DNA of 32,000 bases from Acaryochloris marina S15 (GCF_018336915.1 NZ_CP064927.1:30001-62000); one strand, 5' to 3'; counted from the stretch's first letter, positions 5,520 through 30,873 are shown. Numbers and translations: made by a program. The notes: a model not told the origin generated them from the sequence alone.

Positions 5520-5540
5520 CTTGCTGTAACAGCAGTACTT

Positions 5541-6404: not shown

Positions 6405-6433
6405 TTTCTGTGTGGCCGATGAGCTACACAGGG

Positions 6434-13559: not shown

Positions 13560-13600
13560 GGATCCCTAGCTATTTCCCGTAGCTGGGATTCCTTTTTTTT
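13560..13600 (+). terminator. Imperfect hairpin plus T8 run (possible bidirectional terminator between the sigma and rep genes)
   Basis: GGATCCCTAGCT-ATTTCCCGT-AGCTGGGATTCC has 9 of 12 stem pairs and is followed by TTTTTTTT. An A-rich tract precedes it, so it could work on either strand. The stem is weak. Confidence 0.25.
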
Positions 13601-13786
13601 AGGTCATTGTCGCCTCCTGGGGAAAAATATAGGGATTCTTAGTGAACCATACTACGCTTCAGCCCTCAATACGCAAAGGCTTTAAAACAAAAGATCATCA
13701 AGGGTTTCAGGATCTGAGGCAGCACGATTCGATGAGGAAGACATGGGTCAATTCCTCGGATAAGAATGAAGCAATTCGTTGTTGGT

Positions 13787-15127
13787 TCAGGGCAAACTTT
13801 CATTAGAATCATTCGGCGGTCGAGGGTGTTCTCTCCTGTATCCAATCCCAACATCTTGCAATAAATCTGTAGTGAAGAACGACATTATTGACCTCCTTTT
13901 GTTCGGTTGATCATTGTTCTGAAATCCTCTAATAGCATGAGATATAAGCGCTAATGGCAGCAAAAGCATACGGAGAATTACTGGGCTGAATCCCAGATAT
14001 CCTCTCCAATCGTCTTGAGTTCTCTCCAGTTGACGGCATCGCTGATTCTCTGAGGTAAGTCGATGCCTCGCGACATCAGCAATCCCGTGATTGCTACACC
14101 GACGAAGAACCAGAATGTGTTCCTGAGCATTGGTTAGTTCTCCATGATCATGAATATGACTCTCTTTATTGGTTTGATTGAAAATCCGTTTGATAACTTT
14201 GCTGATTCTCCCGCCTAGTCGTGAGGCGTCAACTCGTTTTATGGCAGGTTCTCTGACTTCTTTAGGTGCAGGTAGGTCGAGAGGTAACTGATCACCCTCG
14301 CCAACTGGCTCAATATTGTGGTGGGTGGATACGGGAGTAATTGGCTTCAGGGTTCCTGTTGCCAGTGCTGACAAAGTTTCCTTTGCTCCTTTAACCAACT
14401 GGCGTACTCGCTCTCTGGATATCCCTAGCCGTTTCCCGATTTCTCGGTTGTTATGGCCTTGGTGTTTAGCAATCAGCATTGAGACCTGGCGATCTTCCAA
14501 GTGACCCTCACCTTGGAGTTGATCAAGAGTAGTTAGAATCTCAGCCTCTTCTGAAGTGCGCCAAGGATCAACAGTTTCATCGGACTGAAAATCTAGCCAC
14601 TCAGGACAATCATCGTCAAACCTTTGGTTAAAGCTCAGGGGCTGAACAAAAGCCTTATGTTGCCAGGTAGTCAAGATTTGCTTCTGAGATAATCCACTGC
14701 GCTCTGCAATCTCTTCTAGGGCTGGCTCTCTGCCTAACTCTTGACTAAGAGCGGTTGAGACTTTTGATATTTTGCGAAGATTGGTTAGTGTATTGCGACT
14801 AATCCCTGCCTCTCTACAAAAGCAGTCTCGAACTTCAGACCAAAGAGTTGGCACCAAATAAGTTGAGAATTTATTGCCAGTAGACAATTTAAATCCTCTT
14901 GCCGCTAGGACGACAGCCATCTCTCCAGCAGAGTTTAAGATTCTGTGATCCACTTGAAAACCATAGCGCTTGACCTCTTTGGTGATCAGTCCTTTGTTTT
15001 TACGAATTAGCTGACGTGATGCCCGCTCGTCCCCAGCCTTGATTCTCAGAATCAGATCGTATTCTTCTTCACGGGTAAGGAGTTCGGTTTTTTGGGTTTG
15101 TCTGTTGCGTGAAGTAGCACCTATCAT
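13787..15127 (-). CDS. Sigma-70-family RNA polymerase sigma factor with a ~190-aa C-terminal extension
   Basis: 446 aa. Region 2-like sequence is EEEYDLILRIKAGDERASRQLIRKNKGLITKEVKRY and FSTYLVPTLWSEVRDCF. The region 3-like sequence is LGREPALEEIAERSGLSQKQI. The region 4.2 HTH is NREIGKRLGISRERVRQLVKGAKETL, ending near aa 258. The ORF continues without a stop for about 190 aa. That stretch includes a hydrophobic segment, FSPVILRMLLLPLALISHAI (13931-13990). Confidence 0.85.
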   Translation of the reverse strand: MIGATSRNRQTQKTELLTREEEYDLILRIKAGDERASRQLIRKNKGLITKEVKRYGFQVDHRILNSAGEMAVVLAARGFKLSTGNKFSTYLVPTLWSEVRDCFCREAGISRNTLTNLRKISKVSTALSQELGREPALEEIAERSGLSQKQILTTWQHKAFVQPLSFNQRFDDDCPEWLDFQSDETVDPWRTSEEAEILTTLDQLQGEGHLEDRQVSMLIAKHQGHNNREIGKRLGISRERVRQLVKGAKETLSALATGTLKPITPVSTHHNIEPVGEGDQLPLDLPAPKEVREPAIKRVDASRLGGRISKVIKRIFNQTNKESHIHDHGELTNAQEHILVLRRCSNHGIADVARHRLTSENQRCRQLERTQDDWRGYLGFSPVILRMLLLPLALISHAIRGFQNNDQPNKRRSIMSFFTTDLLQDVGIGYRREHPRPPNDSNESLP

Positions 15128-15153
15128 GGGCTTAACCTCAATAGATTCTTTTT

Positions 15154-15309
15154 CGGTTTCTGAGGTCAGTGGCTCTCTGGTTGTTTTAGTAGGCGGTTAG
15201 AGAGCCACTTGAATTATTAAATTGAACAACGGTGCTGAAGCACTGGCGGGTTTCTGAGGTTGGTGGCTCTCTGGTTGTTTAGTAGGCGGTTAGAGAGCGG
15301 AATTGAATT
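15154..15309. repeat. Two ~60-bp direct repeats (15154-15215 and 15247-15309), each containing a GGCTCTCT...AGAGAGCC inverted repeat
   Basis: Copy A is CGGTTTCTGAGGTCAGTGGCTCTCTGGTTGTTTTAGTAGGCGGTTAGAGAGCCACTTGAATT. Copy B is CGGGTTTCTGAGGTTGGTGGCTCTCTGGTTGTTTAGTAGGCGGTTAGAGAGCGGAATTGAATT. They lie immediately upstream of the sigma gene start at 15127. The octamer GGCTCTCT or its complement also occurs at 15462-15469 and 15624-15631. Confidence 0.8.
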
Positions 15310-15677
15310 GTGGGTAATCTGGCTAACAGGCTTCTAAATAATCGTTTGACTGGTAAGTTCTTCTTTAAGAGCGAGCTTGGGTATTTCCTTGGTCTACTCT
15401 GCTGGTTGTTGCCGATTCTTATCTTCGTTAGGTGTGGTTGGTGATCTGGTGGGTTGGTAGGAGAGAGCCAAGCCAGGATTAAGTTGAGAAAATTTTCTGA
15501 GAAAATCCGTGCCCAGCTTACTTCAGTACATTTTGTGTTGCTGTAAAGCTTGCGGGTCAAGGGGATTTGCGTTTTGAATATGATGTTGCCTATCATTTAA
15601 ATATGACCTTCTGAAGGATTCTAGGCTCTCTAATTACGTTTTGGTGGCAGATTAGGGGGTCGATTTTTTTATCGTGC

Positions 15678-16687: not shown

Positions 16688-18094
16688 ATGAATGACAAGG
16701 GTTTAGGCGTCGGTGAAGCGATAGAGCTGATCGATAACTGGCTAGTGGCTAGGAATCGTAAACAGCTCACTTCAGCAGAGAAGCTTCTGATCTCTGCTGC
16801 TTGGGAGAATCGGAAATATGAAGATGTAGCGGAAGAATCAGGTTACAACCCTGATTACCTCAAACAAGCAGGTCAAGGTTTGTGGCGAACGCTTAGTCTT
16901 GTGATTGGCAAGAAAGTGACCAAGACCCGCCTAAGAAGTATGGTTGAGGGTAAAAAGCTGGAATTAGCTCGCCATCAATTGACGAAGAAATATTCTAAAG
17001 AAATGAGGGGTGAGCTTGAGCCTCCTGAGTTTACTGTTCTGGGTCGTCGCCCCCCTACGGTTGAACAGTATTTTGGGTATAAAGCAGAGCTAGCGATGCT
17101 TCGGCAAAGTGTACTAGAACGTCAATGTGTCTTAGTAGTAGGCCAGGCAGGTATTGGCAAGAGTTCACTCTGCTCAAAGCTGTTGGAGCAATTGAAGATA
17201 TCTGCTGATAATCATTTTGAGCAAGTGGTCTGGCAGAGTATGTCTAGCCATCAGAATCTTGATAGCTTGCTGGAGGAAATATTTAGATGCTTGAAATTAA
17301 GCCCCTATGACTCATCTAAGGATCTGACGGTTCAAGTTACTGAGTTAGTTGAATTCCTCCATCGTGAAAAGATCCTGATCGTACTTGATGGTGCGGAGGA
17401 AATACTTAAAGAGGCAACCAACAATAATCAGTACGGTAAGAACGAAAACTATGGTTGGTTCTTAGAGCAGATAAGGGAGTGTTCCCATTCCTCTTGTTTC
17501 CTGATTACCAGTAGAGAGCCCTTTAAAGATCTGGAGTTCGCCGAAACGTCGGGCCAATCGGTACGCATCATGGATATCAAAGGACTAGGACAAGATGCAT
17601 ATCGTTTTCTAGAATCCCAAGGACTGATGGATACGAATGATGGATTTAGATTATTAATCCATCGCTATCGGTCAAACCCGTTTCTTCTCAAATTAGTTTC
17701 TGCTCGAATCCGTAACTATTTTGGTGGGGATGTGAACGCCTTTATTCAATGCGATTCCATCTTAATGAGTGAGTCTGTCCAGCAAGCCCTGGATACTCAA
17801 TTTAGATTAGGAATTTGGACCGCATTAGAACGAGAATTAATGCAGATCTTGGCGCATTCCGATAAAAATGGAGAGGGGATCTCTTTTCAAGAAGTATTTC
17901 AGATGCTAAAACAGCAGAAAGGCGATTTATCCATGCATGAGTTTATCGCAGCAATAGATAACTTGGTGAGTCGTTCATTGTTGGAACGCTGCCAAGAAGA
18001 TAGTGAACCCTTAATCTTGTCCCTGCAACCCGTCATTCGGAAATATCTGCTTAAAGATCCATCAGGAGTGATACAAGAATCCCTTGCTGCATAG
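16688..18094 (+). CDS. STAND NTPase (NACHT-like) with an N-terminal HTH-type adaptor domain and no C-terminal repeat sensor
   Basis: 468 aa. The N-terminal ~90 aa read LTSAEKLLISAAWENRKYEDVAEESGYNPDYLKQAGQGLWRTLSLVIGKKVTKTRLRSMVE. This resembles the LuxR/sigma-r4-like helical module seen at N-termini of cyanobacterial STAND/WD40/TPR proteins. Walker A is VVGQAGIGKSSL (about 17141-17164). Walker B is KILIVLDGAEEI, the NACHT-type hhhhDGxxE pattern. FLITSREPF lies downstream. The ORF ends after the winged-helix-like region, with no TPR, WD40 or LRR. Confidence 0.8.
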   Translation: MNDKGLGVGEAIELIDNWLVARNRKQLTSAEKLLISAAWENRKYEDVAEESGYNPDYLKQAGQGLWRTLSLVIGKKVTKTRLRSMVEGKKLELARHQLTKKYSKEMRGELEPPEFTVLGRRPPTVEQYFGYKAELAMLRQSVLERQCVLVVGQAGIGKSSLCSKLLEQLKISADNHFEQVVWQSMSSHQNLDSLLEEIFRCLKLSPYDSSKDLTVQVTELVEFLHREKILIVLDGAEEILKEATNNNQYGKNENYGWFLEQIRECSHSSCFLITSREPFKDLEFAETSGQSVRIMDIKGLGQDAYRFLESQGLMDTNDGFRLLIHRYRSNPFLLKLVSARIRNYFGGDVNAFIQCDSILMSESVQQALDTQFRLGIWTALERELMQILAHSDKNGEGISFQEVFQMLKQQKGDLSMHEFIAAIDNLVSRSLLERCQEDSEPLILSLQPVIRKYLLKDPSGVIQESLAA

Positions 18095-18111
18095 TTGAAA
18101 GATGATGAAAT

Positions 18112-19875
18112 GTGACCTGCTACTGTTTCAATCCTCGCTGTCAGACTAGGGAAAACTCAGATACCGATTTGGTGTGTCCATCTTGTGGCACATCACTACT
18201 TGTAAAAAATCGATATCGACTCTTGAACCCTTTGCGTCCAATCGATGGTCCTATTCCTCAAGCAATTGAAGTTTTTGAGTGTGAGGATACAACAGGAGGT
18301 GAAGGCATTGATCCGGGAACTCACCTGATCATCAAGATACTTTTGGTCAGCGATCGGTTTGAGTCCTATGACGCCAAGCGGGTTAATCTACTGTATCGAG
18401 AATCGAAAGCTCTCCTCAATGTTGAACACCCTGGAATCCCTATTGCTCCCAAAAATGGTTTTTTCTGTCTGAATGACACGGGTATCGCTAAGGAAGTGTA
18501 CTGCCTGGTTCAACAGAAAATTGAGGGCCAGACGCTAGAAGAGTGGCTAGACGATCAGGGTTCCATTTCAGAGAAACAAGCATTGGATTGGTTGAATCAA
18601 CTCGCAGAAACCCTTCATGCCGTTCACCAAAAGGGATATTTCCACCGAGATATCAAACCCGCAAATATCATGATTAAGCCAGATGGGAAGCTGGTGCTTA
18701 TTGACTTTGGGGCAGCAAGAGATCTTACTGATACCTTTTTAGCAAGGATTAGCTCAGCTCCTTTAGAGAGTGACTACAAACATGAGCTAGAGGTCACGAG
18801 TATTTTTACGGCGGGCTATGCTCCACCGGAACAAATGAACGGCAAAGGATTACCCCAAAGTGACTTTTATGCTCTTGGTCGCACCTTTGTTCACCTTCTC
18901 ACGGGTGTTCATCCCAATCGATTACCTGGAGATATTTACACTGGGAAATTGACCTGGCGAGATAAGGTCCCTCAGCTCTCCAAGCCTTTCGCTGATTTCC
19001 TCGATCAGCTGATGTCGATCCCACCGGGAAAGCGGCCCCAAAACACAGCATCCCTATTACTGTATTTACAATCTTCATTACCTAAAAAACTAAAACGCAA
19101 TAGACTTTTCAATGATCGACGATTTCAGTTTGGCCTTGGCATTCTATTCTTATTGCTTCTGGCAATAGGGTTTAAGTTAGGGACACAACGCTTGTCGCGC
19201 TACTATTTCCTATTGGCAAATGAACAGCAGAGCAAAGGGAAGTTGGCAGAAGCCAGAGGCTACTACGAGCGGGCTATCCAGTTGAATTCAACTAACAAGA
19301 CTGCCTACAACAATCTCGGAGTGGTCTGTCAGCAATTACAGGATGTGGATTGCGTCTTAGAGAGCTATTACAAAGGACTGGACGTTAAGCCTAATGATGA
19401 GGTGCTATTTTACAATCTCGGCACCATCCATGAAGATGTCCAAGACTATGCCAAGGCAAGGCAGTATTACCAAAAATCGATTGATGCGAGTCAAGGACAA
19501 TACCTAGCCCCAGTCAACAACCTGGCGAGGTTAGACCTGCTCGATAATAAGCCCCAAGCAGCCGAAGCTCGGATTCGGCAAGTGTTAGATCAATCTGACC
19601 ATGATCGGGTGATGGCATCCCTGTATAAAAATCTGGGATGGGCACAGTACCAGCAAAAACAATACGTTCAGGCCGTTGTAAGTTTAAAGAAGAGTATGCA
19701 GTTTAACCCTGAAGAGGTTAGTACTCACTGTCTATTGGCAAAAGCTGAGAATTCTCTGGGCCAACCTTCTGCAACTAATTGGGAAATATGCCTTCTTGCC
19801 AAGTCTGACCTGCCCGAAGTATGGGAATGGAGATATCAGTATATTCAGCAGAAAGAGAAGATAGTCAAGCCCTAG
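18112..19875 (+). CDS. Zn-ribbon Ser/Thr protein kinase with one TM helix and C-terminal TPR repeats
   Basis: 587 aa. GTG is the only in-frame start after the TGA at 18106. The N-terminal 4-Cys motif is CFNPRCQTRENSDTDLVCPSCG. The kinase core has IIKIL (VAIK-like Lys), HRDIKPANIMI, LIDFGAAR and GYAPPEQ. The TM helix FQFGLGILFLLLLAIGFKLG lies at about 19123-19185. About 5-6 TPR-like repeats follow (AEARGYYERAIQLNSTNKTAYNNLGVV..., AKARQYYQKSIDAS...). Confidence 0.9.
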   Translation: MTCYCFNPRCQTRENSDTDLVCPSCGTSLLVKNRYRLLNPLRPIDGPIPQAIEVFECEDTTGGEGIDPGTHLIIKILLVSDRFESYDAKRVNLLYRESKALLNVEHPGIPIAPKNGFFCLNDTGIAKEVYCLVQQKIEGQTLEEWLDDQGSISEKQALDWLNQLAETLHAVHQKGYFHRDIKPANIMIKPDGKLVLIDFGAARDLTDTFLARISSAPLESDYKHELEVTSIFTAGYAPPEQMNGKGLPQSDFYALGRTFVHLLTGVHPNRLPGDIYTGKLTWRDKVPQLSKPFADFLDQLMSIPPGKRPQNTASLLLYLQSSLPKKLKRNRLFNDRRFQFGLGILFLLLLAIGFKLGTQRLSRYYFLLANEQQSKGKLAEARGYYERAIQLNSTNKTAYNNLGVVCQQLQDVDCVLESYYKGLDVKPNDEVLFYNLGTIHEDVQDYAKARQYYQKSIDASQGQYLAPVNNLARLDLLDNKPQAAEARIRQVLDQSDHDRVMASLYKNLGWAQYQQKQYVQAVVSLKKSMQFNPEEVSTHCLLAKAENSLGQPSATNWEICLLAKSDLPEVWEWRYQYIQQKEKIVKP

Positions 19876-19914
19876 GCTTGCATTTATCTCTCGCAACTAG
19901 ATAACTTATATCTA

Positions 19915-20829
19915 ATGCATAAACTACTTTTACGACCCTCTCTGCTTTTGCCTTTAATAGCTGTAAGCTCATCCCTTCCGCTTACAGCAAGGTCCAAGCC
20001 CTCTCAATCAGCCCGCTGTAAGCCAACCATCGCTCGAATGGTAACAGAGGGAGATAGAAACTTCCGTCGTGGGACATTACTATGTCCCCAAGATCTTGTA
20101 GCTCCAGCTCCAGGCAAGCGGCCTAGGCTATTCTGTCATAAGAGCGGAGCAGTGTTGGTGGGCCGGACTGGGCGAGTGGCCGAACTCTGTGCTGCTGACG
20201 CCAATAATTCGGCTCTTCGTGGGGGAAATGAGGGTAGCCTCAGCGTCAACACGAGGGGGAATGAGGATGAACTTAAACTCCTTGCCCCGTTTGGTCCAAC
20301 TATTATCCAACAACGCCCTGATCTAACCTGGAAGCCGATTGGAGAAGCAACTCACTATGTGATCAGTATTGAGGGCTACCACCTGAAGCTAAAGCAAACT
20401 GTATCAGAGACTCGTTTGCAATATCCTTCAAGCTGGCCAGCCCTGGAATTTGGCAGCGCTTATGAGATTGAAATTCTGGTCTATCAAGGCAAGCAGCCCA
20501 TTAGCGTGGGTCGGGCGACTATAAATCTCGTGATTGAGACAGATGCCGTTGCCATTCAAGAACAGGCTGCTGCGATTAAACGACTCCCTGTTCCTCTCAG
20601 TGAAGTTGCAGTAGAGCTAGACACTCTATACATGACTCGAAATTTATTTCATGAGTCCATTCAATTCTTAGAAAGTCTGAGAAAAAAAGGAAAAAGCAAC
20701 CTCAAACTCAATCAGTTACTGGCAAAGCGATATTTCCAAGTGGATCATCCCGAGCTGGCAGAGGCGATCATAGAAGAAGCTCAATTGCCAACGAGAATAA
20801 AGTTGCCCCAGAAAAAAGGATGGGAATAG
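19915..20829 (+). CDS. Secreted DUF928-like protein
   Basis: 304 aa. The signal peptide is MHKLLLRPSLLLPLIAVSSSLPLTARS. The core reads RGGNEGSLSVNTRGNEDELKLLAPFGPTIIQQRPDLTWKPIGEATHYVISIEG...LQYPSSWPALEFGSAYEIEILVY...VGRATINLV, followed by LDTLYMTRNLFHESIQFLESL. This fits my recollection of the DUF928 pattern: RGG..RG, L.ALVP, PTF.W, LE.G..Y.W, and a C-terminal ...LYA..G.WYDAL. That is recall only, not an HMM hit. The 3' end overlaps the convergent CHAT gene by 49 nt. Confidence 0.6.
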   Translation: MHKLLLRPSLLLPLIAVSSSLPLTARSKPSQSARCKPTIARMVTEGDRNFRRGTLLCPQDLVAPAPGKRPRLFCHKSGAVLVGRTGRVAELCAADANNSALRGGNEGSLSVNTRGNEDELKLLAPFGPTIIQQRPDLTWKPIGEATHYVISIEGYHLKLKQTVSETRLQYPSSWPALEFGSAYEIEILVYQGKQPISVGRATINLVIETDAVAIQEQAAAIKRLPVPLSEVAVELDTLYMTRNLFHESIQFLESLRKKGKSNLKLNQLLAKRYFQVDHPELAEAIIEEAQLPTRIKLPQKKGWE

Positions 20830-23228
20830 TCCTCAGATCGAATGAGCTTGAGTTGGGCTTGCTGTAATGCTTTAGCTTTGGACGAATTATCTTTGAGTTC
20901 CTGATAGAAGGCTGAAATGAGTTCTGTTGTTGCACTTGAATCGGCTAGCCATAGAGAGGCTAGCGTATTTCTAGAGCCTGCTTGTGTGGCTATTCCGGCT
21001 AAACCGAGAGCAGACTTCTTATCGCCCTTAGCCGTCTGACATGCGCTGAGGATCAGCAATTCCAAAGAGGCATGACCATTATGACGCTTCCTGTTGAGCA
21101 TATTGTGGAATTCCAGGGCATTGATGGGCTGGTTGTAGGCCAGCAGCATTGTTTTTGAGAGATCTGAGCTAAATAAACCGTGAGTGGCGATGTGAACGAC
21201 CTCTGTATCCTGACGTAGAGCGGTTTCTAGTCGATCTGTTGTGAACTCATGATTGAGTAATGAAGACTCTAAATTAGAGGCTTTGGCGACACCCTCAAGT
21301 TCAGCCTCCACTTCAGGCAAAGGATTGAGGTTGCTAGGGACGTTGGGCTGATTAAAGCTGGGGGCTGAATTCGAGAGTCCAGCAAACAGGACATTCATCT
21401 GACTCAGATCTTTGGTCTGAGCTTGTCTGAGCTGAACGCTTAGAGCGGTCTGCACAGGGTATTTTTCAATCAGATAGGTTTGCCCATCATGTAAAAGCCC
21501 CATCGGTAGATTTTGGAAGTGGCTATCTAGATGAAAGATGAGTGAACCTGATGTCGGTAGATATTGCTTGATGGGGCCTAAGATTTGCTGGTATAGTGCC
21601 TGGGAGCTTTTCTTGATTCGTGATTCAGAAATTAGATAGGTGTTGTCATTGTCCAGCATAACGACGAGATTAAATACCTCCTCCATCACGATCTCTGAAT
21701 CGGGTTGATGGCGATATAGCCCCTCTGAGTTTTGGACAATGATGTCAACTTTGTCCTCTAATTGGAAAATGTGAATTCGGGTGGCCGAGTCAGATTGCTG
21801 TGGTTTATTCACATTGGTGACATTGAGCCTGCCACATTTTAGATAATTTTCTAGTTCAGCCACTTGCAGTTGTTGATGAGTGGAAAGAACCAGCTCAAGA
21901 TCAGGAGATGGCGAGGCTAATAAGAGTTGTAGGTATTCTGTATAGACAGGCTCCACACTTTCTTGATAGCTAAATTGAAGGTCAGACGTTGCCGAGATGA
22001 GCTTAGTTCTTACCTGCTCCAAATGTTGGATGCTGGTGTCATAGGCGGTCAGTGCTTGAGATCGGTTTCCCTGCTGCTGGTGGATCTGGGCGATGTGCCA
22101 TGACCATTGATACGCTAGGCTATCGTCTGTATTAGCCTGGGCTAGATTGAGCGCTTGTTTAAAGACTTGCATCGCATCCTCTTGCTGCTTTGATTGCAGA
22201 TAGAGTCTGCCGAGGGTGCCATAGGCTTGAGATTTCAGCCTGGGATCATTTAGGGTATTGGCTTTCAACAGGGCAGATTTAGCATGGTTGAATGCCTCAG
22301 CTAACAAAGAATTACTGATTTTAGAGGTGATCGGTTTTTGGTCTACCTCACTCAAGAGTTGGCTTAGTTTGAGCTGTAGGTTGATAGCCTCGGCTTCAGG
22401 AAATTGGCTGAAGTCATTAGAGATTAGATTTTTGATGAGAGGGTGGATGAGAGTTTGGGAGTCTTTGCGCAATTGAACGACGTCAAAAGCGTCCGAATCA
22501 TCGAGGCTAAGAATGAGCTGGAGGCTATTCAGTTGAGCATGGATGCGATGAGTTGGGCTGGACGCCAGGTTGCCATAAAGCTTGATTGCTGATTGAGCAT
22601 GTAGTTTGGCATCAAGACCCAACTGGGCTTCAGTAAGAGTATCTCTCGTTAAAGTGCGTTGACTGATAGCTCGCTTATATTGAGCGTGATAGGTATTTGC
22701 CAGACTCAATCGGATATCACGATTGGAAGGCTTCAAGCTAGAAGCATGTTGGAGGATAATCTGTGATGATTCTAGTCGTCCCAGGATTTGCAGGTTATTC
22801 CCCAGGTTGTGAAGTGCGGCCAACTGTTGAGTGGTATCTAACTTGTTATTGATCTCTATCTCTAATAGGCTCTGGTTAAGTTGTCTTCCAGATTGACTCT
22901 GGCAGTATTCATAATCAAGAGTAAGGACTTTGGTCAGAGTGGTGCAAGCGCGATAGTATTGCCCCATCTTTTTCAGAGCAACGCTTTTGTTGATGGATGC
23001 CCTGTAAAAGCCGGGTGGGTGACTGGCTTTCTTGTAAATAGAATGTGCGTTATTAAAGAGCTTTAAAGCTGTTTGGGGCTTGTTTCTCTTCAGAGATTCT
23101 AAGCCCTGCTGGATCAGCATATCCCCTTGCTGAATCTGGGATTGAGATGCGAAAGCTGGAGCAGTAAAAGTCTGACTACAGACTAGACAGAAAAGGCTAA
23201 AAAGTTGATAGGAAGGGATTTTTTTCAT
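20781..23228 (-). CDS. Secreted TPR-CHAT domain protein (caspase-like Cys/His protease fold)
   Basis: 815 aa. The signal peptide is MKKIPSYQLFSLFCLVCSQTFTAPAFA|SQ. The N-terminal half contains TPR-like repeats. The C-terminal CHAT domain carries the conserved His (VVHIATHGLFSS), the conserved Cys (LLILSACQTAKGD) and the typical terminus HPFFWGNFILVGN. Confidence 0.9.
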   Translation of the reverse strand: MKKIPSYQLFSLFCLVCSQTFTAPAFASQSQIQQGDMLIQQGLESLKRNKPQTALKLFNNAHSIYKKASHPPGFYRASINKSVALKKMGQYYRACTTLTKVLTLDYEYCQSQSGRQLNQSLLEIEINNKLDTTQQLAALHNLGNNLQILGRLESSQIILQHASSLKPSNRDIRLSLANTYHAQYKRAISQRTLTRDTLTEAQLGLDAKLHAQSAIKLYGNLASSPTHRIHAQLNSLQLILSLDDSDAFDVVQLRKDSQTLIHPLIKNLISNDFSQFPEAEAINLQLKLSQLLSEVDQKPITSKISNSLLAEAFNHAKSALLKANTLNDPRLKSQAYGTLGRLYLQSKQQEDAMQVFKQALNLAQANTDDSLAYQWSWHIAQIHQQQGNRSQALTAYDTSIQHLEQVRTKLISATSDLQFSYQESVEPVYTEYLQLLLASPSPDLELVLSTHQQLQVAELENYLKCGRLNVTNVNKPQQSDSATRIHIFQLEDKVDIIVQNSEGLYRHQPDSEIVMEEVFNLVVMLDNDNTYLISESRIKKSSQALYQQILGPIKQYLPTSGSLIFHLDSHFQNLPMGLLHDGQTYLIEKYPVQTALSVQLRQAQTKDLSQMNVLFAGLSNSAPSFNQPNVPSNLNPLPEVEAELEGVAKASNLESSLLNHEFTTDRLETALRQDTEVVHIATHGLFSSDLSKTMLLAYNQPINALEFHNMLNRKRHNGHASLELLILSACQTAKGDKKSALGLAGIATQAGSRNTLASLWLADSSATTELISAFYQELKDNSSKAKALQQAQLKLIRSEDYSHPFFWGNFILVGN

Positions 23229-23234
23229 CTTTCC

Positions 23235-25652
23235 TTATGACTTCTTACACATTGAGGGATCTGATGAGGTGTGTGTAGATTGAGTCTTAGTTTTTGTGAT
23301 CAGGACTGTTTTGCCATTATCTTTAGTCCATCCAGTTGCTTCCACTATTGGGTTCTCTATTGGCGGTGGGGCAGTCTGCGATTTGAATGCTAATTGGAAG
23401 GTAGGAATACCCAGTATCGAATCTGTTTCTGCAAAATGACTGGGTTCTACTTGCAAAGCACCTGGCCCCATAGCAACGAATTTACTGTCTCCAGTGGAGG
23501 GGTTGCAGTCTGAGATGAGTTGAGGTGGACGCTCAACATCTGGTTTAGGTGCAGTTGTCTCTTCAGCTCCGGTTTCTTCGACATCAAGGTTGATATTGCC
23601 ATCTAACTGAAGTCCGGCGTCCGAAGATACGCTGAATTCCACCTTGGGGCCAAATATAGCTGCTTGGGCTGTGATTGAAATATTTCCCCCTTGACCTTTC
23701 TCTGCCTCCGCAGTAAAACTGCTTTCTCCTATAGCTACAACTAAATCAGAGATGGCTGTGATATTTCCTCCCGTGCCTTTTTGGGTGGCTGATGCTGTAA
23801 TTGAGCTGTCTTTGAGTAAGATGAAGTCAGCAAAAATAAAGACATTACCACCCTCACCACCAAAAGTTGCTGCACTAATGAGACTATTGTCCTCAAGGGC
23901 AATAATGTTTGCAGAAATCTTCAGCTCTCCAGCATCGCCAGTGCCTTCATTACGGGCAGATAACTGCCCCCCATACTTGAGAAGTAGCCGGGGAGTATTG
24001 ATGGTGACACTTCCAGAATCTCCACTGGGAAGTGGGGGAAGTTTAAGAAGCTGTCGAAGTACCGGATCTACTTGAATGGCGTTAGCGGCAATTGAGCTAG
24101 GTAGACCCATTCCAGAACTACCACGAATTTCAATATATTCATGGGCATTTATTTCCAATTTGCCACTATTCCCTGAACTTGAAATCGAAACATTAACTTC
24201 TCCGCTGTCTTCTAGGATTAACTTAGAGGTATTAATCACTAAATTCCCGGAACTTCCTGATCCAAGACTTGCAGATGATAGGTTACTTGGTTGCATAAAT
24301 ATAGGCTCAAATCCGGTCACCTCGACTAAATCAGCAAAAACCGAAACCTTACCACCATCCCCTCTGCCAAAAGTAGCAGAAGATAAACGTCCGCCTTGAC
24401 TAATTGATAGTTGAGAAGTAGAGATATTGATATCTCCAGCCTTACCCGAACCGAAAGTAATAGTATTAATAACACTGACTCCTAAAGGATTGATTGGTGA
24501 GGTCCCTTCAAGATCCAGGTATTTGGAGGCTTTAATCGATATTTTTCCTCCATCAGTTGAGGAAAAAGTTCGAGAGGATAATCTACTCCCATCGCGTACT
24601 ACTATGGCGGGAGAAATTAGGGTGATTGGAGCGCCAGAGCCTGAATTAGTCGATTCAGAATATAGTCCTGAAGCCAATATTTCAGGCAATGAGGCATCGC
24701 CGATATCTATTAATTCTGTTGCGACTACTTTTAGTTCCTTGTCTGCGACTACTCCTTGGTTGTTCATCAAAGCCGCTGAACCCTTTAGGAACTGAATATT
24801 TCGCCCATGTACACCGATTAATGCACCACCTTGTCCAGTCGTTTCAAGTAGTGATCGGTTTGTTAAAGTGATTTCCCCAGTAGACCCTCGATCATAGATG
24901 AAAGACCTTTGGGTGTTAGAGGTGTCAAATTTCACCTGACTTTGTTTAACACTCCCTATCTCAATTCGACCTCCAGGGGCACGGATAATACCACCATCTA
25001 AAAAAACATCTCCACCTACCAAGGCAAGAGTTTTACCTGGCAACACTTGCAAGCCTCTGGGGTTATCCTTTCCCGATACAGGAAAAAATAGGTTAGCAGA
25101 AAGTTGATGTCCACTATTAGTAACGCGAATATTCCCAGGATTACTACCTAACTGAATACCTACGGGTGTTGCTACCGTCAGTAGGGGAGGAGATTGAGGG
25201 GATAAAGCGCTGAATTGCATTCCATCAACAAATTCAATGCTATTTGCAGTAGTTCCTAGAAAAGAGCCACCGATATCTAGTTGAGCGTTCGTGCCAAATA
25301 CAATCCCATTAGGATTTAAGAGAAACAAGTTAGCAGTACTATTGGCCTTAAGGATACCGTCAATACTCGATATCGACTTGCCCGTAACACGACTAAAAAT
25401 GTTTTGGATATTGGCAGCATTTTTAAAATAAGCTGTTCCACCTGTTGGCACAGAAAAATTTTGGAAGCTATGGAAAAGATTTCTTCCTCTCACAGAACCA
25501 TCCTCAATAAGGAATATATTTCCTTGATTAGTGACGCGAGAATTAACAGAGCGATCTGGAACAATTTGCCCTTGAGCAGATGTTGTCCCTAGTAGACTTA
25601 GCAAAATTACTGCTATAGCTGTTTTTTGCAGTGAAAACTCTAGGATTTTCAT
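23235..25652 (-). CDS. TPS-domain (filamentous haemagglutinin N-terminal) beta-helix exoprotein, TpsA-like
   Basis: The ORF track places a TTG start at 25667. I prefer ATG at 25652 (MKILEFSLQKTAIAVILLSLLGTTSAQG|QIVPD), which gives a signal peptide. The TPS secretion-domain motifs are NLFHSFQNFSVPTGGTAYFKN, NIFSRVTG, IDGIL and ANLFLLNPNGIVFG. Repetitive G/S/N-rich beta-helix repeats follow. The gene ends 6 nt before the CHAT gene's start. Confidence 0.85.
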   Translation of the reverse strand: MKILEFSLQKTAIAVILLSLLGTTSAQGQIVPDRSVNSRVTNQGNIFLIEDGSVRGRNLFHSFQNFSVPTGGTAYFKNAANIQNIFSRVTGKSISSIDGILKANSTANLFLLNPNGIVFGTNAQLDIGGSFLGTTANSIEFVDGMQFSALSPQSPPLLTVATPVGIQLGSNPGNIRVTNSGHQLSANLFFPVSGKDNPRGLQVLPGKTLALVGGDVFLDGGIIRAPGGRIEIGSVKQSQVKFDTSNTQRSFIYDRGSTGEITLTNRSLLETTGQGGALIGVHGRNIQFLKGSAALMNNQGVVADKELKVVATELIDIGDASLPEILASGLYSESTNSGSGAPITLISPAIVVRDGSRLSSRTFSSTDGGKISIKASKYLDLEGTSPINPLGVSVINTITFGSGKAGDINISTSQLSISQGGRLSSATFGRGDGGKVSVFADLVEVTGFEPIFMQPSNLSSASLGSGSSGNLVINTSKLILEDSGEVNVSISSSGNSGKLEINAHEYIEIRGSSGMGLPSSIAANAIQVDPVLRQLLKLPPLPSGDSGSVTINTPRLLLKYGGQLSARNEGTGDAGELKISANIIALEDNSLISAATFGGEGGNVFIFADFILLKDSSITASATQKGTGGNITAISDLVVAIGESSFTAEAEKGQGGNISITAQAAIFGPKVEFSVSSDAGLQLDGNINLDVEETGAEETTAPKPDVERPPQLISDCNPSTGDSKFVAMGPGALQVEPSHFAETDSILGIPTFQLAFKSQTAPPPIENPIVEATGWTKDNGKTVLITKTKTQSTHTSSDPSMCKKS

Positions 25653-25690
25653 TATTTCAGAACTCAAGTATGTATTCTCTAGTTCAATTT

Positions 25691-27157
25691 TTAGATAGCG
25701 AATGATGAGGGGAATTCACGACGATGAAGAATCTCATTAAAATCTTCCCATTCTTTTTGTTCCCAGGGAGTGGATTTCATCGTTGCTGCTTGAACTTTTT
25801 CCATGAAAGGTCTGCGAACTTTCTCATACTTGTTAAATGCATCGGCGATCTTATTTTTATTGTCTAAGCTATTTTCTTGAATCAGCTTAGTAATTTCGGT
25901 AGCAATAAATGCAGCATCTTCTAGTCCTTGATTCGCGCCTTGAGCTATGAAAGGAGGCATTGCATGAGCAGCATCCCCTAGTAAAACTATACGCCCGTGA
26001 CTCCAAGCAATTTGAGAATCAACCGGGGTAGTCACTGGATGAATGTAATATAGGCGATGAATTATTTTTTCAGGATTCGATAAACGTAACAGCTTTGTGC
26101 AAATTGAAGGAAAATCACCATTTTTCAATGCCTTTACTCCTAGTTCAATAAGCTCAGATGGTGATTTATCTTTCCAAGAATCCAAGTCTATAGAAGCATG
26201 GAGTAAATATCCAATAGTGTTATCTGGTCTTCGCATCAAGACCAGACGTAATTGCTCTAAATCTTGGGAATCTAACTTGATAGAATTATTATGAAGGGTT
26301 ACAAATGGATCTCCTTGAAAGCATTTAGCCTTCAGTTCTTCAATCATTGAAATCGGTATATTATTTATTCCAAAACAACCAATAGCAGCAACACCGGAAT
26401 ATTGAGGTTGTGCCCATTGCCTTAAATCTGTTTTGGAATAAAGCAATTGTCGAATTGTTGAATTAACACCATCTGCTGCAATCACTAATTTGGCATATAA
26501 CGATTTTTGGTGGTCAGATTCTTGATTGGCTTGAGTCGAGTCGGAAGGATTTACATTGGATGGCATCATTTCCCAATGAGCAAATGGATTACGTGAGGTT
26601 GATGCATCTGAAATCGTATTGACTTGCACCCATCCATCTTCTTCCTCAACATGAACGCAACGATGGTTTGCTTGAACAATATCTGGAGGGAGCAAATTTC
26701 TCAATGTTGTTTGTAAGTCAAACCAAGATAAAGAAACTCGTCCCTCTCCATAGCGCTCAAACCAACTTTCAAAATCCGTAGGAATCGAAAGAGTAATTTC
26801 ACCTTGTAAGTTTTTTTGAATCCATTTTCCTTTCTTAGCTGCTGGCTTCTCTTTTTTAACCTCGTTTGGGCTACTTGAAGACTTCTTTTCAACTGGAAGC
26901 TGATGTGCTTTTGAAGCTGTCTCCTTGATTTTCTCGTAGGCTTCTGAATCGGTATACTTAATTGCTTTTAATCCATTGGGTAATAGATCAACAACTTGCC
27001 CAACTTTACGAAATTCACTGGCTTGATCGATGACGAGGATATTTGTGATGCCTCTCTTTCGTAAGCCAATCGCTGTTGCCAAGCCCACTGGACCTGCACC
27101 TACAATCAAGACATCATAAATTTTCTGTGGAGAACCTGAACCACTGATATCAGTCAT
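25691..27157 (-). CDS. FAD-dependent aromatic-ring monooxygenase (UbiH/salicylate-hydroxylase class) with a Lys/Ser-rich insertion
   Basis: 488 aa. The dinucleotide-binding motif is DVLIVGAGPVGLATAIGL. The FAD/substrate motif is LLGDAAHAMPPFIAQGANQGLEDA. An unusual low-complexity insert, EKKSSSSPNEVKKEKPAAKKGKW, is present. The gene lies 23 nt upstream of the TPS-domain gene on the same strand. Confidence 0.9.
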   Translation of the reverse strand: MTDISGSGSPQKIYDVLIVGAGPVGLATAIGLRKRGITNILVIDQASEFRKVGQVVDLLPNGLKAIKYTDSEAYEKIKETASKAHQLPVEKKSSSSPNEVKKEKPAAKKGKWIQKNLQGEITLSIPTDFESWFERYGEGRVSLSWFDLQTTLRNLLPPDIVQANHRCVHVEEEDGWVQVNTISDASTSRNPFAHWEMMPSNVNPSDSTQANQESDHQKSLYAKLVIAADGVNSTIRQLLYSKTDLRQWAQPQYSGVAAIGCFGINNIPISMIEELKAKCFQGDPFVTLHNNSIKLDSQDLEQLRLVLMRRPDNTIGYLLHASIDLDSWKDKSPSELIELGVKALKNGDFPSICTKLLRLSNPEKIIHRLYYIHPVTTPVDSQIAWSHGRIVLLGDAAHAMPPFIAQGANQGLEDAAFIATEITKLIQENSLDNKNKIADAFNKYEKVRRPFMEKVQAATMKSTPWEQKEWEDFNEILHRREFPSSFAI

Positions 27158-27199
27158 GGATATAAATATTTTATTGAGTTTTAAAACAGAAAGGGGACG

Positions 27200-27697
27200 A
27201 TGGAACCAGAAATAAGCAGCTATTCCCCTGCAACCTCATGTACCGAACGATACCACTTTTCGGAGACGACTTTGCGATCTCAACATTCCCTCAAACTGAC
27301 CATCAGCCTCACTCCCGAACACCTTGGGTTTCTCGCTTACACATTCCCCAACGAAGATCCTGAAGATGCCCTGATCAAACTCCTCGATAGCGCACGAAAC
27401 CGAGCCATTCGCAGAGCAGAACAGCAAGTGAGAGTCCTACATCCAGGCCAAGAAGGAAGCAAAGACCAATCCGTGAGCCTAGTTGATGATGTGGTGGAGA
27501 ATCCGATCGGTGAGTTACAGGAGTTATGCCAGCATCAGCAAATCTCAATGCCCAGGTACGAGTTCGAGGAAATTTCGGAGGGGTTTCGTTGTATGGCACA
27601 GGCGATGGGATTACGGGGAGTTGGCGAGGGTACATCGAAGAAAGAGGCGAAAGCGGAGGCTGCGAAGAGACTGCTTGGCAAAGCTGCTCCAAATTAA
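27200..27697 (+). CDS. Small protein with a C-terminal double-stranded-RNA-binding domain (dsRBD); the N-terminal region may be RHH-like
   Basis: 165 aa. The C-terminal ~65 aa are NPIGELQELCQHQQISMPRYEFEEISEGFRCMAQAMGLRGVGEGTSKKEAKAEAAKRLLGK. This matches the dsRBD pattern P...LqE.cq....P.Y......F...v.v.g...GeG.SKKeAe..AA..lL. The N-terminal LKLTISLTPEHLGFL...ALIKLLDSARNRAIRRAEQQ is strand-helix-helix-like. The start is uncertain: the divergent intergenic gap to the monooxygenase gene is only 42 nt. Confidence 0.6.
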   Translation: MEPEISSYSPATSCTERYHFSETTLRSQHSLKLTISLTPEHLGFLAYTFPNEDPEDALIKLLDSARNRAIRRAEQQVRVLHPGQEGSKDQSVSLVDDVVENPIGELQELCQHQQISMPRYEFEEISEGFRCMAQAMGLRGVGEGTSKKEAKAEAAKRLLGKAAPN

Positions 27698-27770
27698 GCT
27701 TTCCCCTGAAATCCCCCAGACCATATCCCCAAAAGCTACACTAAACCAGCCTTAGCACTGGATATCTGCA

Positions 27771-28391
27771 ATGCCTCCCCAACTCATTTCCCTGAAGTCC
27801 AAGCCACCAGCCGACCTCCCGGTGAAACCCTCGACAAACACCGAAGCACCCCCCGCATACCCAGACAAGACATCATTCCCGACCATCGACCGGAAAGACG
27901 ATCTGCCAGTGAAGCGCAAGGCGACTCCACAGCCTGAAGACGATGATCGCATCACTGAACCCACTCCCAAATACGACCGCAGCGAACCCACCGACACACG
28001 AAGAACACAGCGAGGGTATTCAGCTCGGCAAACACCAGGAAGAGTCCGACCCCCCAGAGTATCCAGAGACTTTGAGTCCAAATTCCACGCACTTGAGAAG
28101 CGTCAAAAGACTCTGATTGAGCAGACCAAGCAAAAGGGGCAGCTTGAGTATCTGACCGTTTCCCAAAGCAGTTCAGGGAAGTATTGGATCACCGTCGAGG
28201 GCAGCGGCAAGCCCTTCATCAGAATTTCGTTTGAAACGCCTGAATTTTGCTTTGAGTGTGCCTTGGAATTAGAAGACACATTCGATGTGTTGCAGGTTTT
28301 GAGTCTGCGGCCAGGGGAAACCATTGAACGGATTGAGGAGATGATCGGGGTGTGGTTGGATCGGGAGCGGGTGGCGAAGGCTTGGGGTTGA
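27771..28391 (+). CDS. Hypothetical protein (Pro-rich disordered N-terminus, ~110-aa C-terminal globular domain)
   Basis: 206-aa ORF with an ATG start. It lies in the same GC-richer block as the dsRBD gene. I recognise no motif. Confidence 0.5.
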   Translation: MPPQLISLKSKPPADLPVKPSTNTEAPPAYPDKTSFPTIDRKDDLPVKRKATPQPEDDDRITEPTPKYDRSEPTDTRRTQRGYSARQTPGRVRPPRVSRDFESKFHALEKRQKTLIEQTKQKGQLEYLTVSQSSSGKYWITVEGSGKPFIRISFETPEFCFECALELEDTFDVLQVLSLRPGETIERIEEMIGVWLDRERVAKAWG

Positions 28392-29688: not shown

Positions 29689-30873
29689 GGCAACTGATTT
29701 CGGGTTTTAATCCAGTTGATCTGACAAATCGGCTGTTTAACCTAACATGAATAACAAAGAAAGAAGAAACAGGCAATTGCATCACCTCACTTTGAGAATT
29801 CACCCCATAATTCCGTTTTCTATGCATGAAAAACTGGATCTCAGTTACAGAGACCTCTAGAATTTATAGATTTCATATTGAGCTTACCCTTGGCAAAAAT
29901 GCCGAAGATTGATCATCGTGTATGCCAAGCTTTTCAGGGCATAGTGCAACTTACTGATCCACTCGAATCGCAGTAGCAAGCGCTTGAATTTATCCTCCCA
30001 GGCAAAGACTCGCTCAATGGTATTGAATCTTTCTTGGAAGATGGATGAATCGAACAGCCTTTTTGGACCTGGCTTTGGCGTCTTTCTCCCCCGAAGATTT
30101 TCATTGATATTTGGCACCATCCTTCGATTGAAAATGGCCTTGCGATTCTCACGACTATCGTACACGCCATCCAAGCTGACGACAGTCCCAATCAAGTCTA
30201 TACCTATGGTTCGGGCTGTACTCATTACTTGCGTCAGTGCCGTTTTGAATAGAGGTGACTCGTTCCGGTTACCAGGAGCAGTGATAAAGGGAGAGATCAC
30301 ATTGCAATTGCGATCACAAAAGGCAACCACTTTGTCACCCTTCATGTGCTTGTGTCCACTGAATCCCAGATTGTCGCCCCCTTTCTTGGCTGCAGTGGTT
30401 GTCCCATCTCCATGAATAATGCTGGCATCCAACTTTCCTTTTTCATTAAGCATTGAGACTGACGCCTTGAAAATGTCTTCAAAACACCCATGGGTTTCAT
30501 AGCGTCGAAAGGCTCGATAAACACTGGAGTGGTTAATTTCCGGTCGCCCATTTTTGTCCTTTTCAATGGGTAGCTCACTCCACTGACATCCCAAGTGCAG
30601 CAACTTCAAAATGTAGTTGAAGATGGCATGCAAAGAGAGCTTTGGTTGAGGTCCCCGAGTGCCGATGTGCAAATGGGGTAAGACAAATGTCTCAAACTGC
30701 TCAAGGGTTAAGAATGTTGGAATCCATTTATAGGGCTTAGTTTGAGGCATCTGCACTCCTAACGAACGGTAAACTAAATGACTGGCGTCATTTTAGTCTG
30801 CAACGATAGAAGGCTATGCAGGGAAGGGTTTTAGGTGATCTGAACCATGGAGTAAAACCCGAAATGAGTTGCC
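29689..30873 (-). mobile_element. IS4/IS5-superfamily insertion sequence (~1.19 kb) with 25-bp terminal inverted repeats
   Basis: The left IR is GGCAACTGATTTCGGGTTTTAATCC (29689-29713). The reverse complement of the right IR is GGCAACTCATTTCGGGTTTTACTCC (30849-30873). They match at 23 of 25 positions. The element encloses one DDE transposase gene. I saw no flanking direct repeat. Confidence 0.8.
29884..30750 (-). CDS. DDE transposase, IS4/IS5 superfamily
   Basis: The ORF track places a GTG start at 30756. I prefer ATG at 30750, which has GGAG 6 nt upstream (MPQTKPYKWIPTFLTLEQFETFVLPHL...). The N-terminal HTH-like region includes HSSVYRAFRRYETHG. The DDE region includes IIHGDGTTTAAKKGG, VVSLDGVYDSRENRKAIF and NTIERVFAWEDKFKRLLLRFE. 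Confidence 0.85.
   Translation of the reverse strand: MPQTKPYKWIPTFLTLEQFETFVLPHLHIGTRGPQPKLSLHAIFNYILKLLHLGCQWSELPIEKDKNGRPEINHSSVYRAFRRYETHGCFEDIFKASVSMLNEKGKLDASIIHGDGTTTAAKKGGDNLGFSGHKHMKGDKVVAFCDRNCNVISPFITAPGNRNESPLFKTALTQVMSTARTIGIDLIGTVVSLDGVYDSRENRKAIFNRRMVPNINENLRGRKTPKPGPKRLFDSSIFQERFNTIERVFAWEDKFKRLLLRFEWISKLHYALKSLAYTMINLRHFCQG

Follow-up and report, generated by a model that had tools for sequence, protein, structure and literature searches.

A conserved five-gene module that adjoins the CyRepA1 replication gene on large plasmids of cyanobacteria

Two convergent sets of genes lie between positions 16688 and 27157 of a stretch of 32,000 nucleotides (nt) from Acaryochloris marina S15 (GCF_018336915.1, NZ_CP064927.1:30001-62000), which is referred to here in its full length as the window. 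An initial annotation, made from the sequence alone, had described these genes as a convergent module that pairs a cytoplasmic nucleoside triphosphatase (NTPase) and a transmembrane kinase with a set of exported proteins. Protein comparisons show that five of the genes are co-inherited beside the CyRepA1-family replication gene of large cyanobacterial plasmids, and we use the term “module” for this unit of five. The genes at the locus are as follows, with protein lengths in amino acids (aa):

16688-18094, plus strand, NTPase with an N-terminal helix-turn-helix (HTH) domain of the VMAP-M9 type and an NB-ARC domain, 468 aa
18112-19875, plus strand, Ser/Thr kinase, 587 aa
19915-20829, plus strand, protein with predicted export, here called P3, 304 aa
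20781-23228, minus strand, caspase-like protease with tetratricopeptide repeats (TPRs) and a CHAT domain, predicted export, 815 aa
23235-25667, minus strand, TpsA-type exoprotein of two-partner secretion (TPS), 810 aa
25691-27157, minus strand, flavin adenine dinucleotide (FAD)-dependent monooxygenase, 488 aa
20781-20829, overlap of the 3′ ends of the convergent P3 and CHAT genes, 49 nt

The coordinates and spacing first assigned to these genes are correct, with gaps of 17 nt between the NTPase and kinase genes and 39 nt between the kinase and P3 genes, and with the 3′ overlap as listed. Of 40 related loci, 29 also have an overlap at this junction, with a median length of 38 nt. Profile searches with the six encoded proteins upheld five of the six domain assignments, the exception being the DUF928 label that had been given to P3. 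The proposed split between compartments, which places a P-loop switch and a kinase domain in the cytoplasm and has three proteins leave it, is also upheld by topology signals and is conserved across the family. Specifically, a crude measure of hydropathy reveals export-like hydrophobic N termini in 44 of 46 P3 proteins, 31 of 39 CHAT proteins, and 20 of 30 TPS proteins. Scans of the module for promoters and terminators yielded nothing beyond shuffled expectation.

Conservation of the five-gene unit

A census centered on the NTPase, covering 80 loci from GTDB species representatives, places the kinase gene adjacent to the NTPase gene in 50 loci (42 divergent, 8 co-directional). The P3 gene is also present in 38 of these 50 loci, and most of the others are cut by contig ends. 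Where there is room on the contig, a CHAT gene is found in 29 of 31 loci and a TPS gene in 25 of 26. In all, 46 related loci, drawn from Acaryochloris, Nostocales, Leptolyngbyaceae, and other groups, keep the layout of the five-gene core, and recurrence in that many independent loci places the arrangement far from chance. The functional link between the two convergent halves had originally been offered with reserve. Because synteny spans at least four cyanobacterial orders, the objection that the halves are never co-localized elsewhere fails, and the link gains support.

The core remains intact despite inversion of the NTPase gene, insertion of TpsB genes and of insertion sequence (IS) elements, and changing flanks. 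The five genes and their convergent layout recur on contigs with P3 relatives at 53-75% identity, where it is the gene past tpsA that varies. On pCC7120alpha, on the Acaryochloris plasmids pMB08 and pREB2, and on a plasmid of Nostoc UHCC 0870, the order is CyRepA1-(sigma factor)-NB-ARC-kinase-P3 >< CHAT-(TpsB)-TPS. In the PCC 7120 copy, the kinase is encoded by alr7232 and the TPS protein by all7235, and the positions of alr7233 and all7234 would make them the P3 and CHAT genes, respectively. The module spans about 9 kb, or about 11 kb with TpsB; on pMB08, which is 90 kb in size, its share is about 12%. Nostoc punctiforme ATCC 29133 has module copies on two plasmids, NC_010631 (near 72-76 kb) and NC_010632 (near 185 kb).

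The replication gene is a constant neighbor of the module, and CyRepA1 lies beyond the far side of the NTPase gene in 20 of the 24 loci with room. When PLSDB was searched with P3 by tblastn, matches were found on 53 plasmids, all of them about 80 kb or larger and nearly all carrying a single copy. These include 35 plasmids from Nostoc, 7 from Acaryochloris, and 6 from Leptolyngbya, plus others from Trichormus, Nodularia, Fischerella, and Halotia. Each of several co-resident plasmids has a module copy of its own, diverged from the others, and more than half of the module-bearing plasmids are typed as non-mobilizable. The module is missing from the small CyRepA1 plasmids of Synechocystis, Synechococcus, and Planktothrix, and from some large ones, such as pREB7 and pREB8 of Acaryochloris. 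A megablast comparison of the module with PLSDB gave zero matches, and relatives were recovered by protein-level searches only.

The 30 most distant NTPase paralogues in the census present a different picture. No kinase, P3, or TPS homologue occurs in their loci, of which two have a weak CHAT-domain match and four are chromosomal.

The module proteins

The NTPase comprises an HTH domain (residues 1-95) listed as PF26355 (HTH_VMAP-M9), a P-loop domain (about 116-300), a helical domain, and a winged helix that extends to about residue 460. Its initial description as an HTH-NACHT-like NTPase is borne out by matches to NB-ARC (46.6 bits, cut-off 23.5), NACHT (41.4 bits), and nSTAND1 (36.3 bits), all of which exceed the Pfam cut-offs. 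However, an AlphaFold2 model of the protein (predicted local distance difference test score, or pLDDT, of 83.7) has plant CNL resistosomes, CED-4, and Apaf-1 as its top Foldseek matches (E = 1e-13 to 1e-9). Because of this predicted fold, NB-ARC/AP-ATPase is a better label than NACHT-like. The Walker A (GxxGxGK[ST]) and Walker B (hhhhD[EG]) motifs are conserved in 57 NTPase homologues.

C-terminal sensor repeats are typical of STAND NTPases, but are not universal among them. None of the TPR, WD40, or LRR type was found in this protein, whose chain stops at residue 468 after the winged helix. Neither the profile scan nor the model reveals a repeat family, in agreement with what had been noticed at the outset. 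All NTPase relatives at 44-93% identity come from Acaryochloris. The C-terminal tail of the NTPase (encoded at 18080-18094) ends in SLAA in this genus, recalling an ssrA/ClpX-type degron, and ends in SNAS or similar in Nostocales. A degron was rejected because the SLAA tail is conserved in Acaryochloris only.

The kinase begins with a four-cysteine zinc-ribbon prefix (residues 4-29), followed by a Hanks kinase domain (74-310), a transmembrane (TM) segment (338-356), and a TPR array (about 360-550) that is predicted to be extracytoplasmic. Matches to NF045510 for the prefix and to Pkinase (91 bits), together with the position of the TPRs past a single hydrophobic segment, agree with the zinc-ribbon Ser/Thr kinase originally proposed. 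The K, HRD, DFG, and APE motifs and the four cysteines are conserved in 54 homologues. The glycine-rich loop of the window kinase appears degenerate on direct reading of the sequence. A single TM segment is present in 50 of the 54 homologues, with K and R residues richer on its N-terminal side, and the window kinase has seven K/R among the 15 residues that precede the segment. Both features support the extracytoplasmic placement of the TPRs.

Covariation of pairwise identities links the kinase closely to the NTPase. The kinase catalytic domain and the NTPase have a Spearman correlation of 0.93 (partial, 0.83; 0.89 when Acaryochloris is excluded), compared with 0.78 between the catalytic domain and the periplasmic half of the same kinase (jackknife difference, 0.14-0.18). 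Such tight covariation fits a cognate kinase-substrate pair, but linkage alone could contribute to this pattern.

Two loci show damage to the kinase gene or its surroundings. In Nostoc PCC 7120, a TnpB/IS insertion at 8645-11857 of locus L006 (pCC7120alpha) splits the kinase gene and leaves a 50-aa open reading frame (ORF) with the four cysteines apart from alr7232. Elsewhere, a decaying module copy (L092, 7117-12124, and L093) has a split NTPase gene, an inserted gene with an MCPsignal domain, and an IS-shortened 97-aa CHAT ORF near a transposase. The kinase of this copy is fused in frame to the Ig and helical C-terminal half of P3 (P0118).

The DUF928-like (PF06051) label given to P3 does not hold. 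The protein itself has zero DUF928 matches even at E <= 5, one of nine family members touches the model (E = 0.078), and none of eight distant members does so. Moreover, there are no Pfam domains on the P3 homologues among the matches of two homologue searches, one made with P3 alone and the other with a nine-member alignment. On the basis of these profile scans, a DUF928 identity is rejected, and P3 is classified as a family for which there is no Pfam model.

P3 is predicted to have a signal peptide, a Cys-rich N-terminal region (with C57, C74, and C92 conserved), an Ig/FN3-like beta domain, and a TPR-like helical C-terminal domain. Its AlphaFold2 model is of moderate quality (pLDDT of 60.7, rising to about 70-80 across residues 140-290). 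Among known folds, the model is closest to the C-terminal domain of MtxA (4z29, E = 2e-6), which is of the Ig plus TPR-like kind, and next closest to FN3 domains. A P3 profile search of 1.84 billion cluster representatives recovered 358 relatives at E <= 1e-10, mainly stand-alone proteins of 300-360 aa. The beta domain (profile positions about 120-200) is also found as 8-18 repeats in giant proteins of 1000-2600 aa (P0060, P0071, P0090, and others), one of which additionally matches Pfam Ig_Rha78A_N.

The assignment of the fourth protein as a TPR-CHAT protease is confirmed by a CHAT (PF12770) match of 177.7 bits, located after TPRs and a signal-peptide-like N terminus. The CHAT domain spans residues 540-815 and includes His679/683 and Cys730. 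The H..TH[GA] and S[AG]C[QE]TA motifs are kept in 36 of 36 homologues, and the His/Cys dyad of this putative cysteine protease is thus intact.

A second census, centered on CHAT and covering 80 metagenome loci, found a TPS gene within 9 kb in 46 loci, and upstream on the same strand in 26 of the 47 loci with room. In contrast, P3 is found in 8 of the 80 loci and exclusively beside the CHATs nearest to the query. These eight loci carry the kinase and NTPase genes as well, where the contig permits. The module CHATs are thus the clade closest to the query within a broader tpsA-chat association. Because TPS genes are common in CHAT loci and P3 is limited to the query-nearest CHATs, the tpsA-chat pairing is the older and wider one, and the NTPase/kinase/P3 triad marks a single clade within it. 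A DUF928 neighbor is absent at the three non-module CHAT loci inspected. Two published leads to CHAT genes proved to be unrelated to the module: all2170, a chromosomal CHAT gene in a phage-resistance study (PMC10811720), is not a module gene, and a CHAT protein detected by proteomics (PMC9895726) has an accession that differs from that of the module protein.

The TPS exoprotein is recognized, as expected from the initial annotation, by Pfam TPS (214 bits) and TIGR01901 (88 bits). It consists of a signal peptide, a TPS domain (residues 34-255) with NPNG at 118, beta-helix-like repeats, and a conserved C-terminal motif (C...IVEAxGW...G.V.L). The protein has no recognisable toxin domain, nothing beyond TPS was identified in it, and none of 29 homologues (703-884 aa) has a VENN motif. 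As had been reported, no TpsB homologue is found in the window by tblastn. As to whether a TpsB gene is normally adjacent to tpsA, which the initial annotation had asked, most copies lack one. Only 5 of 26 testable related loci have a TpsB (ShlB/FhaC) gene within the module, where it lies between chat and tpsA, and two annotated plasmids carry it as well. Chromosomal TpsB-like proteins of PCC 7120 are reported in the supplement of PMC10811720. In that study, a TpsA gene is mutated in phage-resistant Nostoc 7120, but this gene is the chromosomal alr1906 rather than a module gene, and in all7235 the one difference, found in wild-type lines, is synonymous. This lead to phage resistance is therefore rejected.

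The monooxygenase at the end of the minus-strand set is confirmed as a domain assignment (FAD_binding_3, 83 bits), but not as a member of the conserved unit, because the gene is found solely in L001, L003, L019, and L020. Across the window and loci L004, L005, L006, L009, L019, and L020, the slot upstream of tpsA varies in the small-molecule enzyme that it encodes, which is an FAD monooxygenase, a cytochrome P450, a VOC-family protein, a gamma-glutamyltranspeptidase (GGT), or a ceramidase. The FAD gene is variable cargo outside the five-gene core.

The replication gene and its plasmid setting

The location of the module on a mobile replicon between IS elements, as originally described, is seen in the window, but the main feature of this context, the CyRepA1 neighbor, had been overlooked. 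The features between this neighbor and the NTPase gene are as follows:

9434-13467, minus strand, CyRepA1-family replication gene (Rep) in two frames (12310-13467 and 9434-12460, overlapping at 12310-12460)
13787-15127, minus strand, sigma-70-family protein, 446 aa, with Pfam Sigma70_r3 and r4
15155-15298, two copies, 94 nt apart, of a unit of about 52 nt with an 11-nt inverted repeat (AGTGGCTCTCT / AGAGAGCCACT)

In a tblastn search with the CyRepA1 protein of pREB2, the match covers residues 270-1243 (89% identity) and, in the second frame, residues 1-303 (69% identity). The window Rep is 90-97% identical to the Rep genes of 10 Acaryochloris plasmids, and both this and the NTPase relatives place the window on a plasmid of that genus. 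Intact CyRepA1 homologues measure 1220-1320 aa, and a truncated Mutator-family transposase gene (8546-9481) touches the 3′ end of the split Rep gene. The split may mean that the gene is a frameshift pseudogene, or it may come from a sequencing error or have another cause.

Rep and the module differ greatly in their degree of conservation among Acaryochloris plasmids. Identities to the window proteins are 89-94% for CyRepA1, compared to 37-46% for the sigma factor, 25-50% for the NTPase, 46-59% for the kinase, 25-39% for P3, 37-56% for CHAT, and 33% for TPS. Taken over different Acaryochloris plasmids, co-resident ones included, Rep identities are 89-97%. When window positions 9519-14250 are compared with L008 and L009, similarity at the DNA level ends within the sigma gene, and the N-terminal 300 aa of Rep (69%) and the neighbors are far more diverged. 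The conservation of Rep amid diverged neighbors suggests either homogenization of rep or swapping of the neighboring cassettes, as judged from these identities.

A sigma gene between the Rep and NTPase genes is found on Acaryochloris plasmids only, and L008, L009, and L010 have it in the same position, at 37-51% identity. The pair of 52-nt repeats sits just upstream of this gene, in the 1.56-kb intergenic region between the sigma and NTPase genes. The segment at 15082-15599 is one of few stretches outside Rep that are conserved at the DNA level with pREB2 and pMB08. The repeat pair is possibly an operator, an iteron, or an element of an origin.

The Nostocales versions have other neighbors. 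A conserved protein of about 100 aa (MIAGKLEVTIKINELP...DCDGRIITVTVKPK...) is encoded directly after the NTPase in 25 loci (for example, L006, 6489-6896, minus strand; L016, 11425-11736, plus strand), and this protein is absent from the Acaryochloris versions, the window included. Past Rep, a tyrosine recombinase gene is present in 18 loci, and nine loci of this region encode a coiled-coil protein of 470-520 aa.

Several observations concern the remainder of the window. Positions 1-6404 carry four ORFs on the minus strand (370, 1041, 233, and 287 aa) with high G+C content (0.51-0.57) and a strong positive GC skew; they have no Pfam matches save a weak one to AAA_22. Within this region, positions 3231-6471 are about 78% identical to 12331-15617 of L003, where the sequence lies directly beside the FAD gene. 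Just past the module, a 165-aa ORF (27200-27697, plus strand) has a C-terminal dsrm domain (E = 1.9e-7), and the G+C content of 27001-28000 is about 0.50. Farther on, beyond an IS4/IS5-type transposase gene (29884-30756), a 249-aa ORF (31217-31966, minus strand) has a weak VWA_N2 match (E = 0.0028). A small gene with a VWA domain is located elsewhere on pMB08.

A possible circuit across the cell envelope and its alternatives

The components of the module resemble several known systems, but the likeness is partial in each instance. The closest counterpart of the kinase and NTPase is the AfsK/AfsR pair of Streptomyces, which likewise consists of a Hanks kinase and an NB-ARC NTPase bearing an N-terminal domain of a DNA-binding type. 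AfsK phosphorylates AfsR, and the corresponding module genes are adjacent and covary tightly. However, the SARP domain and C-terminal TPR sensor of AfsR contrast with the VMAP-M9 HTH and the missing sensor of the module NTPase. The module kinase also differs from AfsK in that it is TM-anchored, has external TPRs and a four-cysteine prefix, and is linked to three exported proteins and a rep gene. Moreover, the NCBIfam models for AfsK and AfsR give weak partial matches only.

The fold of the NTPase and the nearby caspase-fold protease call to mind CED-4 and Apaf-1, and CED-4, like the module NTPase, lacks sensor repeats. Unlike CED-3, however, the module protease has a signal peptide and TPRs, and an HTH takes the place of the CARD in the NTPase. 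Because the CHAT protein is exported, direct activation of this caspase-like protein by the STAND NTPase is unlikely, as is its direct recruitment. Among bacterial CHAT proteases, HetF of Anabaena degrades PatU3 (PMC9457339, PMC8406250), indicating that cyanobacterial CHAT domains are active and specific. The target of HetF is a cytoplasmic factor in division and differentiation, whereas the module CHAT carries a signal peptide and TPRs and is paired with a TpsA.

The exported half of the module can be compared with Bordetella FhaB/FhaC and SphB1, given its bona fide TPS domain with NPNG, the TpsB gene of some modules, and an exported protease in the same operon. In contrast, SphB1 is a subtilisin autotransporter rather than a CHAT protease (clan CD), the module TpsA is only about 800 aa in length, and TpsB is missing from the window and from most copies. 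A processing relation between the CHAT protease and TpsA would be analogous to that of SphB1, and is putative. CdiB/CdiA/CdiI systems share with the module a TPS-domain exoprotein on a mobile replicon whose sequences diverge among copies. However, the module TpsA has about a quarter of the length of CdiA and is without a VENN/pretoxin motif, a C-terminal toxin, or an immunity gene.

Finally, the NTP-dependent conflict systems of multicellular bacteria described by Kaur, Burroughs, Iyer, and Aravind in 2020 (PMC7159879) include STAND, CHAT, TPR, and VMAP-M9-type domains and are enriched in filamentous cyanobacteria. Those systems have a core of vWA, MoxR, and VMAP, whereas the module CHAT is exported and the module is fixed beside rep. 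No vWA or MoxR domains were found in the module genes or their conserved neighbors, and the VMAP-M9-type HTH alone is common to the module and the ternary systems. The main text of PMC7159879 makes no mention of a hemagglutinin, of two-partner secretion, or of a secreted component.

Given these features, we tentatively favor the view that the module is a signaling and proteolysis circuit of the plasmid backbone that acts across the cell envelope, while recognizing that this proposal may well prove wrong. The tpsA-(tpsB)-chat operon would deliver TpsA to the cell surface and a dedicated caspase-like protease to the periplasm, with TpsB supplied by the module or from elsewhere in the genome. The substrates of this periplasmic TPR-CHAT protease would be TpsA, P3, or both. 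Together with P3, the external TPR array of the kinase would then report the periplasmic event, and the kinase would phosphorylate the HTH-NB-ARC NTPase in the manner of AfsK acting on AfsR. As a result, the NTPase would oligomerize and its HTH would act on DNA of the same plasmid, perhaps on the two convergent operons, the replication region, or both. A plasmid-specific role at the surface or in self-recognition seems more likely than a housekeeping role.

Several points weigh against the proposed circuit. Because there is no TpsB gene in the window, export of the window TpsA relies on a gene not seen. DNA binding by the VMAP-M9 HTH of the NTPase is putative, and Kaur et al. treat VMAP-M domains as possible sensors (PMC7159879). 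Part of the conserved synteny next to rep could stem from descent of an ancestral plasmid backbone and not from a functional link between the genes. An earlier signal from 27 loci, in which the kinase TPR array tracked P3 and CHAT over its own catalytic domain, was gone with 35 loci (jackknife advantage, -0.016 to 0.039). We therefore dropped the claim of a co-evolving periplasmic block. The only fusion of kinase and P3 found is weak evidence because its locus is decaying. In addition, the splitting of the kinase gene by TnpB implies that the module is dispensable at least in PCC 7120, whose laboratory strain may be a natural mutant of the module. Lastly, a search of the open-access literature found no experimental data on any component.

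A different possibility, which we consider unlikely, is that two independent units travel together on an old backbone, one being a tpsA-chat operon for adhesion or biofilm formation and the other an unrelated kinase/NTPase pair. Such an arrangement would account for the frequency of tpsA-chat without the NTPase, kinase, and P3 (46 of the 80 CHAT loci have TPS, but only 8 have P3) and for the distant NTPase paralogues that have no kinase, P3, or TPS gene. The pairwise identities likewise indicate mosaic histories among parts of the module. Against this possibility, the five genes hold together within the clade through inversions, gain or loss of TpsB, IS insertions, and changing flanks. In addition, P3 is presumably co-transcribed with the kinase even though its gene shares its 3′ end with that of CHAT in most loci, and P3 is found solely beside the query-nearest CHATs.

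Also improbable in our estimation is a plasmid-selfish device for retention, exclusion, competition, or replicon identity, in which TpsA and CHAT harm or mark cells without the plasmid and the kinase and NTPase provide immunity or control. Two-partner secretion systems include those for contact-dependent inhibition. The constant rep neighbor, the presence of mostly one copy per large plasmid, and the divergent copies on co-resident plasmids fit such a device, as does the contrast in Acaryochloris between Rep proteins that are 89-94% identical and module proteins that are 25-59% identical. On the other hand, the short TpsA lacks a VENN motif and a toxin domain, and its gene is not accompanied by one for immunity. 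Furthermore, many CyRepA1 plasmids are without the module, including all the small ones, and more than half of its carriers are typed as non-mobilizable. Plasmid pMB08 carries its own ParM, ParA, and HicAB, in addition to MobF and a coupling protein, and therefore the module is not the sole maintenance function of this plasmid.

An anti-phage or anti-invader system acting by abortive infection, with the kinase and STAND NTPase sensing infection and the exported protease and TpsA serving as effectors or envelope modifiers, is quite unlikely. Conflict systems in multicellular bacteria typically feature STAND NTPases, CHAT proteases, and VMAP-M domains (PMC7159879), and CRISPR or TIR genes are found nearby on module-bearing plasmids. 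The kinase domain matches the PADLOC model PDLC04044 (PD-T4-6) with E = 1.4e-90, but the PD-T4-6 models are generic Ser/Thr-kinase profiles, at least 25 generic kinase models match as well, and the architecture of the module kinase (TM segment plus TPRs, within a five-gene module) is unlike that of the single-gene PD-T4-6 kinase. The NTPase, CHAT, P3, and TPS proteins match no PADLOC model. Moreover, the NTPase is without a sensor domain, and the exported CHAT is beyond the direct reach of a cytoplasmic STAND protein. A fixed site beside rep, mostly with one module per plasmid, is also unlike variable defense islands.

Still more speculative is a specific form of replicon-identity or plasmid-retention device, to which we assign little weight. 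Each CyRepA1 plasmid would carry an orthogonal set of TpsA, CHAT, and P3 that is read by a cognate kinase, with the switch bound near the origin. If true, a periplasmic or surface signal would be tied either to replication or to whether cells survive loss of the plasmid. This would also explain the coexistence, in one Acaryochloris cell, of plasmids whose Rep proteins are nearly identical but whose modules are not. By the usual view, filamentous forms have a periplasm that runs without a break along the filament. A role as a plasmid partition system is rejected, as pMB08 has separate ParM and ParA.

How coexisting large plasmids of cyanobacteria stay separate and are maintained is acknowledged as an open question (PMC10899382). 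A. marina MBIC11017 has nine plasmids, and the module is an obvious candidate for a plasmid-specific function for which we found no report. The open-access literature yielded no description of the module, of the tpsA-chat pairing, or of a phenotype for the module genes of PCC 7120, and an earlier description elsewhere is possible. The module is a conserved backbone feature of large cyanobacterial plasmids and appears to be undescribed. Genetic models that carry it, namely Nostoc punctiforme and PCC 7120 (alr7232-all7235), make its role testable. If the proposed circuit is correct, the module would have a caspase-fold protease at work outside the cytoplasm, linked to a kinase of eukaryote-like type and to a switch of the Apaf-1/CED-4 type. 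Such wiring would differ from that of the death systems known in bacteria and eukaryotes, where STAND-caspase logic is cytoplasmic.

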